The notes under the pieces are model-generated. The model saw only the letters and a program-made list of their open reading frames with translations, was not told the origin of the DNA and did not search any database. This document shows positions 1 through 2,363 of a DNA stretch of 7,211 nucleotides, one piece after another. Positions within the stretch are counted from its first letter, which is position 1, and each line of letters starts with the position of its first letter. A program made the position numbers and the translations under genes. Source of the DNA: a virus (lineage: Duplodnaviria > Heunggongvirae > Uroviricota > Caudoviricetes); IMG/VR virus record IMGVR_UViG_2529292747_000014. One strand, given 5' to 3'.

Positions 1-921
1 TAACGCTGCCAGAACGCGATCTGCCTTGCGGTCATTCTCAGCCACCGAACGGCGCAACCACTTCCAGAAATTCGGCGCATGTGTTGCCAGCGTTTCCCCC
101 TCTGCTGGTGGGCTGAAAGGTAATTCACTGGCAATTAACAACCAGTCGTTTTTGTTATGCTCCCGAAAATTACCAGTTCTGGTATCAAATACCCCGTTAC
201 TGAATCCAATCAGGTTACGGGCTGCATTCCCCATTACGGGCAAACTTAACTTCATGGTATCGACCGCCGATTTGATGGCGTTCTGCGAATAGCTGATTTC
301 CGCATCAATAAAAATCTGCGCCATAGTCCGCTGTAACTCTTTATCCTGTACCGGCTCCCATACAACACCGTTGTAGTGGTGAACGGTGTCAGAATCCGCA
401 TTGATTGCCAGTTCACCGCCATAATGTGCCAGGAGAACTTCGCCGCGCTGGCTTGCTCCCATCTGGTTAAGTGCCAGTGGTGTCGCGCTGTCTTCTGTTT
501 TTTTCTTTGCCGGAAACCGGATAATCAGTCCGTCATCAATGTTTTTACGCTCACGGGCAAGGTATTCACGCCAGTTCTCACACTTCTGGCTGTGCATGCC
601 ATCAGGGTAATAATTCGCATTCTGTATACTTGCCGCCGCCAGCTTCTGACCAATTGCCTTAACCATTACAGGATCTAACTGTCCGGCTCTGAATATGCGC
701 GCGGATGTGCGCCCATCAGGCACTATTTGCAGATTTCCGATCTCTTTCAGTTGTTCATCAGCCAGCACAACAGGTGGCTCATTATCTCCAGCCATACGCG
801 CATCGTGTTCCTGCCATTGTTTCGCGTGTGCCCAGGCATCACTACCCGCGAAAATAATTACCTCTGTGTCTTTGTGTTTTATTCCGCGTGGCTGTTTTTT
901 TACGTTCGGTGCCAGTTTCAT
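1..921 (-). CDS. Replication primase/helicase of the phage-plasmid P4 / D5 family; N-terminal ~307 codons, gene continues past the window start
   Basis: Absent from the ORF track because it has no in-window stop. Manual minus-strand translation from ATG 921..919 is open to position 1: MKLAPNVKKQPRGIKHKDTEVIIFAGSDAW...LIGFSNGVFDTRTGNFREHNKNDWLLIASELPFSPPAEGETLATHAPNFWKWLRRSVAENDRKADRVLAAL. The last ~70 residues fit the NG-x-hD-x-x-TG...P-x-F-x-x-(W/F)-L pattern of the D5 N-terminal region of P4-family primases. G-rich SD (GGGGGGA) sits ~6 nt upstream; the start overlaps the upstream ORF stop as ATGA. Confidence 0.6.
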   Translation of the reverse strand, partial: MKLAPNVKKQPRGIKHKDTEVIIFAGSDAWAHAKQWQEHDARMAGDNEPPVVLADEQLKEIGNLQIVPDGRTSARIFRAGQLDPVMVKAIGQKLAAASIQNANYYPDGMHSQKCENWREYLARERKNIDDGLIIRFPAKKKTEDSATPLALNQMGASQRGEVLLAHYGGELAINADSDTVHHYNGVVWEPVQDKELQRTMAQIFIDAEISYSQNAIKSAVDTMKLSLPVMGNAARNLIGFSNGVFDTRTGNFREHNKNDWLLIASELPFSPPAEGETLATHAPNFWKWLRRSVAENDRKADRVLAAL

Positions 922-1160
922 TTTTTCCCCCCTGCAACCAGCATTTCACGGATTTTGCGGATATAGCTTGCTGCACGTTTTTGATTTACGGCTTTATAAT
1001 GGTCCACCAGCGTAAAATCACGGCGGTAGGTGATATTGCCTGGCGTAACGTGACGAATAACCACTCGTCCCCCACGTCTGGTGTCGCGGTAAATATCTCC
1101 GAGTCTGATTTCAGGCCGAGAGAGACCGCTGGCAGTAAAGCCAGAATTTTTCTTTTTCAT
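918..1160 (-). CDS. Hypothetical basic 80-aa protein immediately upstream of, and translationally coupled to, the primase gene
   Basis: ORF track entry MKKKNSGFTASGLSRPEIRLGDIYRDTRRGGRVVIRHVTPGNITYRRDFTLVDHYKAVNQKRAASYIRKIREMLVAGGKK. AGGA SD ~10 nt upstream; its stop TGA overlaps the primase ATG. No family recognised. Confidence 0.5.
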   Translation of the reverse strand: MKKKNSGFTASGLSRPEIRLGDIYRDTRRGGRVVIRHVTPGNITYRRDFTLVDHYKAVNQKRAASYIRKIREMLVAGGKK

Positions 1161-1190
1161 AGTTTTATTTTCCTGTCAGCAGTTCCGGTT

Positions 1191-1364
1191 TTATTTCCGC
1201 ACGAATACAGAGTTCAGAAAAAATTCAGGAGAACCAACAATCTCATTACTTTTCAGTCGGCATTGTGATTTCACTTTCCCTTTATCCAGGTAAACCAGTA
1301 CGCGTCCGGTGAAATCATCTGGCACATTAAGCACTACGGGTACATGCGCTTCATGATTATGCAT
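1191..1364 (-). CDS. Hypothetical small protein (57 aa)
   Basis: Below the ORF-track length cutoff; found by manual translation: MHNHEAHVPVVLNVPDDFTGRVLVYLDKGKVKSQCRLKSNEIVGSPEFFLNSVFVRK. ATG at 1364..1362 overlaps the stop of the upstream 197-aa ORF in the motif CCATGCATAA; stop TAA at 1191-1193. It fills an otherwise unexplained 196-bp gap. No family recognised. Confidence 0.35.
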   Translation of the reverse strand: MHNHEAHVPVVLNVPDDFTGRVLVYLDKGKVKSQCRLKSNEIVGSPEFFLNSVFVRK

Positions 1365-1950
1365 GGCTTACATCCTCCGTGAATTTTCTTCTGTAACGCG
1401 TCTCTGCCACATATTCCGCATAGTCCGACGCAATACTAAGAATCATTTCACCCTCTGACTTGTAGCCACTGGTATTGATAAGAAAATATGCAGCTTTCAT
1501 CATGTCAGCAACGCTCAACAATGCGCCCGCTGCATCTTCCGGTGCGCCATCAAATTCCCGTTTCAGGGAATTAAAACGATCATCACGCATGTTTACCCCC
1601 CCCTGAATGACCTGATAACCGCAACTGGTCAGCAATTCGATAAATTCCGGCAGTGTGCCGAAACAGCAATCATCACGCAGACGTTCGCGGGATACTTCAA
1701 CGCCGTTTTCGTAGTGACTCACCATGCGTCCGGTAAAATGCAGATCATCATCGTGATGGCACGTTGACGGCTTAATCAGTCGCGCACGTTCCGCCAGTTC
1801 CAGCAATGCTTCAACGCTTCCGGCAATTGCACCATCCGGCAGGTGATAATTACTTACCACGCGTCCATTCTCCACGTTGACCAGTAGCTGCCCGGAAAAT
1901 ATCTCGTCAAACTGAATGCTGTTAAGGTCAGAAATTGACAGGTTATGCAT
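1357..1950 (-). CDS. Hypothetical protein (197 aa; track ORF 1357..1968 trimmed to the ATG with the best SD)
   Basis: Track ORF MCRRCTMHNLSISDLNSIQFDEIF...; the internal Met (MHNLS...) at 1950..1948 is preceded by a consensus AGGAGG SD with a 6-nt spacer and overlaps the upstream ORF stop (CCATGCATAA). No family recognised. Confidence 0.6.
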   Translation of the reverse strand: MHNLSISDLNSIQFDEIFSGQLLVNVENGRVVSNYHLPDGAIAGSVEALLELAERARLIKPSTCHHDDDLHFTGRMVSHYENGVEVSRERLRDDCCFGTLPEFIELLTSCGYQVIQGGVNMRDDRFNSLKREFDGAPEDAAGALLSVADMMKAAYFLINTSGYKSEGEMILSIASDYAEYVAETRYRRKFTEDVSHA

Positions 1951-2167
1951 GGTGCACCTCCTGCACATCAGCCATGATAATTTTTCCGGCCTTATCCAGT
2001 GCCTGATCGGCTTTTAGCTGCACAAATGCTAAATAATGGAAGATGCATTCTGATTCTCTGGCTGCGTGTTTATGCGCCACACCAGCGATAGCAGAAATCT
2101 CAATAAGTGAATCCATCAGCGTTTTGATAGCGTCTACCGCTGCATCAGGCCATGTTGCATTACACAT
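1943..2167 (-). CDS. Hypothetical small protein (74 aa)
   Basis: Track ORF MCNATWPDAAVDAIKTLMDSLIEISAIAGVAHKHAARESECIFHYLAFVQLKADQALDKAGKIIMADVQEVHHA. GGGGGTGG SD-like run upstream; the start overlaps the upstream ORF stop (ATGTGTAA) and the stop overlaps the next start. Confidence 0.5.
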   Translation of the reverse strand: MCNATWPDAAVDAIKTLMDSLIEISAIAGVAHKHAARESECIFHYLAFVQLKADQALDKAGKIIMADVQEVHHA

Positions 2168-2363
2168 GTTCCACCCCCTGACGAATACGGGCGGCGAATA
2201 CCATCACGCAGCCAACTGGGGATTGCTGGCGTGCTTCCTGTTCGCTGGTGGCCTCAATGGTAATCACGCGCGGTTGTGCCGTGCTCAGGGCGATAAAACG
2301 CCAGGTGAATTTATTCAGGTTGTGCAAGTCCCGCCCTTGCGGGTGTGTGGTATGATTTCTCAT
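2160..2363 (-). CDS. Hypothetical small protein (67 aa), first gene of the leftward operon
   Basis: C-terminal 67 codons of the 247-aa track ORF 2160..2903: MRNHTTHPQGRDLHNLNKFTWRFIALSTAQPRVITIEATSEQEARQQSPVGCVMVFAARIRQGVEHV. GAGGT SD sits 4 nt upstream of ATG 2363..2361. An alternative start at 2441 (MQTRLKRIAV...) cannot be excluded. The rest of the 247-aa frame is treated as artefact. Confidence 0.35.
   Translation of the reverse strand: MRNHTTHPQGRDLHNLNKFTWRFIALSTAQPRVITIEATSEQEARQQSPVGCVMVFAARIRQGVEHV

Follow-up and report, generated by a model that had tools for sequence, protein, structure and literature searches.

Five small genes upstream of a satellite primase in Escherichia coli O157:H7 as probable cistrons of an early operon

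Introduction

What are the five small open reading frames (ORFs) that precede the primase gene of a phage satellite, and do they form a system that has escaped description? The question was raised by an earlier note on a 7,211-nt stretch of IMG/VR virus record IMGVR_UViG_2529292747_000014, which we call the window. All coordinates given below without a further label are window positions, and the genes of the chain in question, orfA to orfE followed by the primase gene, all lie on the minus strand. We find that the five ORFs are genuine genes of a helper-embedded satellite, and consider it probable that they are the promoter-proximal cistrons of its translationally coupled early (replication) operon. 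In the best-supported reading, this operon is the positional counterpart of the kil/eta-epsilon-orf151-orf106-alpha operon of phage P4 and the ortholog of a module in EcCICFT073, the prototype Gram-negative phage-inducible chromosomal island (PICI; Fillol-Salom et al. 2018, PMC6092414).

Results

The five ORFs are genuine genes in a tightly packed chain

All five ORFs match PHROG families, with E values of 1e-14 to 1e-80, and exact copies of the five proteins occur on 571 to at least 1000 public contigs each. Comparison with three related islands gave ratios of nonsynonymous to synonymous change (pN/pS) of 0.08-0.73, indicating purifying selection. ORFs on the plus strand of the same region (126 aa, 133 aa and others) had no family matches, and we dropped them as genes. 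From these matches and ratios we conclude that the five small ORFs are genuine genes. The earlier note had expected default annotation to miss two of them; in RefSeq, PGAP calls four as coding sequences and the 57-aa orfD as a frameshifted pseudogene.

The description of the ORFs as an overlapping chain holds for most of its length. Their sizes and positions were as reported, the A/B junction is an 8-nt overlap (ATGTGTAA), the B/C and C/D junctions are 8-nt overlaps with the sequence CCATGCATAA each, and the stop codon of orfE overlaps the primase start as ATGA (4 nt). It breaks at the D/E junction, which is a 30-nt gap without overlap. The repeated 10-mer that had caught attention, CCATGCATAA, is indeed present in exactly two copies in the window, at B/C and C/D, against a chance expectation of 0.04. 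Good ribosome-binding sites were likewise borne out, with a purine-rich, Shine-Dalgarno-like motif 5' of every start codon (GAGGT, GGGGGTGG, AGGAGGT, GGAGGA, AGGAAA and GGGGGG). No terminator-like site was found on the minus (coding) strand within 918-2363.

The first cistron encodes an Icd-like protein

None of the five products had been assigned to a recognized family, and all had been listed as being of unknown function. Three of the five still lack a known function, but orfA and orfE fall into named families. OrfA matches the Icd-like profile NF033153 of NCBIfam over residues 19-62 with 69.5 bits (cutoff 25), and phrog_6196 with E=1.6e-47. The same Icd-like domain makes up residues 85-132 of a 137-aa ORF in the eta/kil region of phage P4, annotated as cI, and this ORF and orfA both match phrog_1743. 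By these profile matches, orfA is an Icd-like protein of the family that forms the C terminus of the P4 eta/kil ORF. As the first cistron it shares its 8-nt overlap with orfB, a geometry also found in P4, and from this geometry translation of orfA and orfB is predicted to be coupled.

Upstream, the orfA frame remains open for another 540 nt; the resulting 247-aa ORF starts with GTG and lies antisense across ylcI. We considered this frame (2903..2160, minus strand) as a long, Eta-like form of orfA and rejected it: it is without an Ash or other domain, is antisense to ylcI and spans the terminators at 2828-2913. Because its upstream part has no domain match, the extension is probably untranslated.

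The only record labeled as a phage that was matched by orfA is L009 (LR881103.1, 'Escherichia phage vB_KppS-Ant', 16.5 kb). The deposit describes it as a phage obtained from an induced prophage; its genes are arranged as in a capsid-forming PICI, with a long Icd-like protein followed by two small ORFs and a primase.

orfB, orfC and orfD are assembled from shuffled domains

OrfB matches phrog_5146 (E=1.3e-49). OrfC comprises two domains, C1 (121 aa, 1594-1950), with two beta-beta-beta-alpha repeats, and C2 (77 aa, 1357-1590), with three helices, which are joined across a run of eight G residues at 1596-1603 (C8 on the plus strand). In three related loci (L003, L004 and L005) the run is G6, and C1 and C2 are two separate ORFs of 121 and 77 aa that overlap by 8 nt. 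The G6 reading closes C1 with 'QGGKHA' and a stop codon and opens C2 with 'MRDDRF'; the G8 of the window merges both frames. Among 65 IMG/VR loci, the run was G6 in 34, G7 in 3 (with a G7AAAC variant in another 6), G8 in 3 and G10 in 2. Among protein clusters there are 196-aa fusions of the G5 type and a 118-aa protein of the G7 type, and E. ruysiae has G9. Across public sequences, run lengths from G5 to G10 switch C1 and C2 between separate and fused. Because the G run is also the Shine-Dalgarno motif of the internal ATG of C2, we infer that free C2 could still be made from the fused form.

A homopolymer has changed orfD as well. It is a 66-aa ORF, the length of its homolog in L003, minus one T of a T7 run (A6 at plus-strand 1218-1223), and the ancestral frame ends at 1165. 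The run is T7 in 36 of the IMG/VR loci and T6 in 2, and this truncation explains the 30-nt gap before orfE. The 197-aa and 57-aa ORFs thus exist as first described, but both are, on these alignments, derived homopolymer states of a commoner six-gene arrangement.

The domains themselves recur in other combinations. C1 consists of two copies of a unit of ~45 aa and orfD of one copy: orfD matched both C1 halves by BLASTP (E from 2e-7 to 1e-2), and C1 and orfD both match phrog_340. In many elements a B-like N-terminal half and C2 form one 154-aa protein; the fusion proteins P0037, P0060 and P0095 carry a B-like domain, and further chimeras link part of C1, B and C2 (222 aa) or Icd, B and C2. We conclude from these alignments that orfB, orfC and orfD are built of shuffled, satellite-restricted domains. 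Because C1 and C2, and B and C2, are fused in other elements, they probably work as pairs.

Structure and profile searches added no relatives. The AlphaFold2 model of orfC had a mean predicted local distance difference test score (pLDDT) of 58, and a Foldseek search of the PDB with this model returned nothing below E = 0.05. PDB sequence searches with four of the proteins gave no match below E = 0.1, and Pfam searches at E up to 10, run with distant members of every family, gave nothing consistent. Given the low pLDDT and the null Foldseek result, we claim no fold for B, C1, C2 or D.

orfE is a shortened DUF4222 protein next to the primase

OrfE matches PF13973 (DUF4222) with 33.2 bits (gathering threshold 27), over profile positions 1-32 of 53 only. 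Aligned with a 96-aa relative (P0123), it is the same protein minus 16 internal residues (RREAYEYDCVMPVYQF), and this deletion leaves it without the complete DUF4222 core of the 95-99-aa proteins. The AlphaFold2 model of the 96-aa form (mean pLDDT 75.8, core 88-92) is a five-strand barrel with a C-terminal helix, from which the deletion would take about strands 3-4, namely the end of strand 3, strand 4 and the start of a short helix.

By its profile match, orfE belongs to the DUF4222 family of the regulator RgdR. RgdR (ECs1581) is a 99-aa regulator of LEE1 and motility encoded in CP-933C / O-island 51, and has homologs at the same position in EcCICFT073 and a related ED1a prophage (PMC3378721). 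Flockhart et al. reported that RgdR residue 20 matters for activity and that the core, aa 20-68, is highly conserved (PMC3378721). OrfE shares with RgdR the DUF4222 domain, the N-terminal motif MKxKNSGxTASG and a place immediately upstream of a primase gene. It differs in length (80 aa), in its 16-aa deletion, in the island that carries it and in having LGD instead of RGD at residues 20-22.

The adjoining primase matches PF08706 (E=6e-14) and phrog_864 (E=1e-75). Its gene runs off the window edge and is 1815 nt long in L001, the neighborhood in strain 272 that we used for the layout of the island.

A candidate promoter and repressor precede the chain

A strong terminator follows alpA (3487-3467) and others lie at 2828-2913, so the chain needs a promoter of its own. 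Consensus scanning gave a candidate sigma-70 promoter and, overlapping it, a divergent promoter for ylcI (Table 1). Across 11 allele groups, the intergenic regions keep the same -35/-10 frame. In this region of the window the palindrome TGGAWTCCA occurs three times and marks candidate operators: the -35 and -10 elements flank one copy, another is at the predicted start of transcription, and the last is ~60 nt upstream. Related islands have other palindromes, repeated two or three times at the same positions (GTGTTNAACAC, TGTGATTCA, GGTATTCAC, GTGGGCCAC and GTGCAAGTCAC). Each palindrome type pairs with its own YlcI allele, and the 11 alleles differ in the predicted N-terminal beta-strand. YlcI is thus a candidate repressor that probably binds the TGGAWTCCA sites of the operon; the concerted change of all two or three operator copies is the stronger part of this covariation argument. 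In the literature searched, we found no paper in which YlcI is treated as a PICI regulator.

Minimum-free-energy folds place a hairpin between promoter and orfA. It is at the same place in four leaders (window, L003, L004 and L007), with differing stem sequences and UCU(A/G)ACCA after it; immediately 5' of the Shine-Dalgarno motif is another small hairpin. The leader hairpin had no match among Rfam families.

By analogy with P4 and P1, an immunity RNA of the C4/isrK kind would be expected 5' of orfA. We rejected this candidate: searches for C4, isrK and c4-a1b1 RNAs gave no match at E up to 10 in 2300-2600 or at E up to 1 in the whole window, and the positive controls, P4 and L008, scored 75-80 bits in the C4/isrK-type search. 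At this position, P4 and a P4-like Acerihabitans element have C4, isrK and c4-a1b1 RNAs, which are absent from the window, L003, L004 and the Cedecea element.

The module is common, collinear and restricted to satellites

Partial matches to the region are present in 1629 of 5426 complete E. coli genomes, and 123 of these have at least 80% of it covered. With orfC as query, phmmer run exhaustively on 1.84 billion cluster representatives returned only 45 clusters. E. ruysiae, a Cedecea species and an Acerihabitans species were the only 3 of 185,579 species-representative genomes found to carry C1, and neither tblastn with C1 nor blastn with the region gave a match among 50,697 phage records.

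The 65 IMG/VR loci are strictly collinear. Divergent from ylcI, each has an icd-like gene, then optionally x76, optionally B, C1, optionally C2 or B+C2, optionally D66 or D77, then DUF4222 and a gene for a primase or RepA helicase. The exact order icd-B-C1-C2-D66-E96-pri occurs in 27 of the 65. L003, L004, L005, EcCICFT073 and Cedecea have the collinear module too, and Cedecea has a minimal set of icd, C1, DUF4222 and primase. Number and identity of the cassettes between the icd-like and DUF4222 genes differ among islands, and the 8-nt junction, (A/G)TGNNTRA, is present three or four times in each island and twice in P4. The derived forms are not confined to the window: the 196/197-aa orfC fusion exists in several sequence variants, also in E. 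albertii, and the 80-aa DUF4222 protein in several variants, also in E. marmotae.

The synteny check proposed in the earlier note came out in favor of the ORFs, which keep frame and order across related elements. Its suggestion of an undescribed system did not survive: the module is present in the prototype EcCICFT073 and hundreds of genomes, and no PADLOC model matches it. The locus is a common, annotated module, and the window itself is ordinary, because the module sits in a large share of E. coli genomes, EcCICFT073 included.

The chain belongs to a helper-embedded island

Over its whole length the window shows 100% identity to E. coli O157:H7 strain PA2; for positions 1-6959, at least eight other O157-type genomes among the matches listed likewise show 100% identity. 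The island spans L001 6692-17127 (~10.4 kb) and carries, in order, int, an alpA-like gene, a Bro-N gene, the divergent ylcI, the five ORFs, primase, SSB and a ClpP-protease/capsid fusion gene. The assignment to a PICI-type satellite was therefore sound, as int, an alpA-type regulator and primase are all present and co-oriented. Because of the terminator at 3487-3467, int/alpA and the downstream genes are separate transcription units, unless there is read-through.

The island is inserted in the large-terminase gene (terL) of a lambdoid prophage, leaving terL in two parts. A 7-bp sequence, CATCCAA, stands at both junctions (window 5121-5127 and L001 6692-6698), and joining the parts in silico at this core yields an uninterrupted 707-aa terL ORF. 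The island is inside, and runs in the same direction as, a late gene in its helper prophage that excision would restore. By these sequence features, the satellite is a helper-embedded PICI (HE-PICI) of ~10.4 kb in terL of a lambdoid prophage of E. coli O157:H7. A fusion of a ClpP-like prohead protease and a major capsid protein is encoded in both the satellite and the host prophage (L001 7608-9497 and 1893-3872); with its own copy, the satellite may build or resize capsids.

At the far end of the window, identity with other O157 genomes ends at 6959, and a frame resembling the transposase orfA of the IS3 family begins at 7011 on the plus strand. This suggests an insertion sequence (IS) upstream of terS that is specific to strain PA2 (6960-7211).

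Table 1. Features of the chain, its control region and its surroundings (window positions unless marked L001)
Feature	Position	Strand	Description
orfA	2363..2160	-	67 aa (translation); Icd-like; first cistron
orfB	2167..1943	-	74 aa (translation); helix-rich; without a named family
orfC	1950..1357	-	197 aa (translation); C1+C2 fusion
orfD	1364..1191	-	57 aa (translation); frameshifted form of a 66-aa ORF
orfE	1160..918	-	80 aa (translation); DUF4222
primase gene	921 leftwards (1..921), off the window edge	-	N-terminal 306 aa, D5_N domain; last cistron
candidate sigma-70 promoter of the operon	2498-2469	-	-35 TTGAAG 2498-2493, 18-nt spacer, -10 TATACT 2474-2469; consensus scan
candidate ylcI promoter, divergent and overlapping	TAAACA 2449-2454, TATAAT 2471-2476	+	consensus scan
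candidate operators, TGGAWTCCA x3	2461-2469, 2484-2492, 2529-2537	.	palindrome; repeat and motif search
leader hairpin, promoter to orfA	2399..2433	-	followed by UCUGACCA; minimum-free-energy folds
ylcI/ynfO-family gene	2560..2739	+	59 aa, ribbon-helix-helix-like; NCBIfam NF041551 E=2.4e-20, weak PSK_trans_fac match
terminators for ylcI	2828-2913		
intrinsic terminator	3487-3467	-	strong; directly 3' of the alpA-like gene, before the Bro-N gene
alpA-like gene	3725..3501	-	alpA-type regulator, as expected of a PICI
int	4956..3718	-	co-oriented with alpA-type regulator and primase genes, as expected of a PICI
terL, N-terminal part	5118-6125		
terL, C-terminal part	L001 5573-6703		

The chain resembles the P4 left operon in position and the EcCICFT073 module in gene order

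The left operon of P4 (eta/kil, epsilon, orf151, orf106, alpha) resembles the chain in several ways. Its first product ends in an Icd-like domain, a run of small ORFs leads into a primase gene, and the operon comes after int and an AlpA/Vis-type gene; the Icd-like ORF/epsilon and epsilon/orf151 junctions are 8-nt overlaps of the form (A/G)TGNNTRA, as in the window. The control regions differ: P4 uses a CI (C4-type) RNA with isrK/seqA targets, whereas the window has a divergent ylcI and candidate operators. BLASTP of orfA, B, C and E against the P4 cI-ORF/eta, epsilon, orf151 and orf106 found nothing, nor did hhalign of the DUF4222 and C1 profiles against P4 orf106, orf151 and each other. None of the P4 genes sid, delta and psu is annotated in island L001. 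With neither these genes, nor epsilon/orf151/orf106 homologs, nor a CI RNA, the island is not a P4-like satellite. The earlier note had also held that genes between alpA and the primase gene often encode interference functions; this is documented for P4 epsilon, not for Gram-negative PICIs.

In EcCICFT073 the order of the module is that of the window island. It has int, an alpA-type helix-turn-helix gene, a divergent ylcI, an icd-like gene, four small overlapping ORFs, DUF4222 (C1493), primase, SSB, PerC and a capsid gene. It differs in being chromosomal and adjoining roxA, whereas the island of the window is inside a prophage, and in having x76, no 121-aa C1 by length and a full 99-aa DUF4222 protein. 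In EcCICFT073, AlpA activates the island's genes and pri is required for replication; the tests covered int, alpA, pri and a few downstream genes, and the small ORFs were left without an assigned role (PMC6092414). The four zones of HE-PICIs (Integration, Bro, Replication and Late) also fit the island, with int plus alpA, Bro-N, primase plus SSB, and the capsid-protease gene. The paper describing them lists a terminase site, A:Terminase_1:245/246, leaves the small ORFs and ylcI undescribed, and attributes the immunity of some elements to C4/isrK RNAs, which are absent here (PMC10111431).

Two further systems begin with an Icd-family gene. Translation of P1 icd is coupled to that of the next gene, and the c4-icd-ant operon of P1 is like the chain in having an Icd-family first cistron that is coupled to its neighbor, as the 8-nt overlap predicts for orfA; the window differs in having neither a C4 RNA nor a downstream ant. 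In strain ECOR61, which has a prophage locus for programmed cell death, the phage gene orf24 triggers cell death, and suppressor insertions fell in an Icd-like gene and two adjoining overlapping small ORFs (Silas et al., bioRxiv 10.1101/2023.04.06.535777). Rebuilding the effect required all six linked genes, primase included, and removal of the Icd-like gene abolished it; in both ECOR61 and a P4 prophage, transposon hits in the Icd-like gene, the adjacent small ORFs and the primase gene suppress death triggered by a phage protein (bioRxiv 10.1101/2023.04.06.535777). ECOR61 shares with the window the order of an Icd-like gene, small overlapping ORFs and primase. It differs in that its Icd-like protein is N-terminally extended and has ~122 aa, against 67 aa for orfA, and in the sizes of its small ORFs, 62 and 64 aa; the window holds no such long form, as the open stretch to 2903 has no domain and is antisense to ylcI. 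PADLOC-DB 2.0 defense models gave no match to orfA-E and the primase at E up to 0.1.

Discussion

If the five ORFs are the first cistrons of an early satellite operon, the reading we think probable, transcription would start at the sigma-70-type promoter at 2498-2469, which the three TGGAWTCCA operators overlap. The divergently encoded YlcI probably binds these operators, in place of the CI/C4 RNA immunity of P4, and AlpA probably acts upstream of, or together with, the YlcI switch. A helper phage would relieve repression, and ribosomes would proceed through the coupled cistrons. The Icd-like protein would then halt host cell division, like P1 Icd and P4 Kil, B, C1-C2 and D would act on host or helper, and the Tudor-like DUF4222 protein and the primase would begin satellite replication.

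Several points weigh against this account. Since neither sequence nor PHROG nor profile comparison links B-E to P4 epsilon, orf151 and orf106, the P4 analogy is positional only, except for orfA. For orfA itself, tblastn did not reach P1 Icd, and the relation is through the NCBIfam profile only. B, C1, C2 and D are without Pfam, PDB-sequence or fold matches, and confidence in the orfC model is low. Promoter and operators are candidates derived from consensus and comparison, and because the YlcI allele adjoins its operators on the DNA, linkage accounts for part of their association. Finally, three derived lesions set the window copy apart from the modal form: C1 and C2 are fused by G8, orfD is frameshifted by T6, and orfE lacks 16 aa. 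Because of such lesions orfD and orfE may be impaired in this copy, and part of the chain may be inactive.

The lesions are also the basis for regarding the chain in this copy as a decaying remnant, in a satellite that sits in a defective prophage; on this view orfC, orfD and orfE are mutated and non-working, and only the ancestral six-gene form functions. G8 fuses C1 and C2, T6 truncates orfD into what PGAP calls a pseudogene, orfE has lost 16 residues, the first two are minority states among the IMG/VR loci (G8 in 3 of 65, T6 in 2), and an IS3-type element adjoins terS in strain PA2. Yet the fused 196/197-aa form and the 80-aa DUF4222 protein each come in several variants and in other species, E. 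albertii and E. marmotae, so both derived forms persist beyond one clone. The internal ATG of C2 retains its G-rich Shine-Dalgarno motif, leaving free C2 possible; orfA, orfB and primase are intact, and in-silico excision at the 7-bp core restores the 707-aa terL frame. We regard decay as a real but lesser possibility than a working early operon. A reading in terms of virulence, in which orfE acts like RgdR in O157:H7 to raise LEE1 and type III secretion and lower motility, draws on shared family membership and on the setting of RgdR itself, which lies just upstream of primase in the PICI-like CP-933C and activates LEE1 (PMC3378721; PMC10877973). It seems to us very improbable: orfE has LGD where RgdR has RGD, and residue 20 matters (PMC3378721), 16 residues are gone from the conserved core (aa 20-68), the module is equally common in strains without LEE, and orfA-D are left unexplained.

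The ECOR61 findings raise the question of whether the chain is an abortive-infection or superinfection-exclusion system, in which B, C1, C2 and D sense phage proteins and release the Icd-like effector together with runaway replication driven by the primase, with death or arrest of the cell as the outcome. Death on expression of orf24, the suppressors in the Icd-like gene and two small ORFs, and the need for all six genes with the Icd-like one indispensable fit this model (bioRxiv 10.1101/2023.04.06.535777), as do the variable cassettes between the icd-like and DUF4222 genes, as in an accessory hotspot, and the confinement of the families to satellites. We nevertheless think it unlikely for the window: no PADLOC model matches, the long N-terminal extension of the ECOR61 protein has no counterpart in the 67-aa orfA, whose upstream frame is without a domain, orfD and orfE are damaged in this copy, and plain satellite induction is another possible reading of the ECOR61 phenotype. 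A related and equally doubtful idea is that B, C1, C2, D and their alternatives are exchangeable sensor or adaptor cassettes, bounded by the 8-nt junctions, that sense proteins of helpers or invaders and gate both Icd-like arrest and replication, with YlcI as a master repressor of at least 11 specificities and the G5-G10 run as a toggle between separate and fused C1/C2.

The comparison is of value in three respects that can be tested. Domains that are separate in some elements and fused in others predict interacting proteins. In one strain, a chain of Icd-like gene, small ORFs and primase has been associated with cell death triggered by phage, and the ECOR61 and P4 data fit either satellite induction or a dedicated exclusion function; the common architecture can guide the choice of genes for deletion. 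The most useful by-product of the analysis is the YlcI/operator hypothesis, which makes YlcI a candidate master repressor of Gram-negative PICIs.

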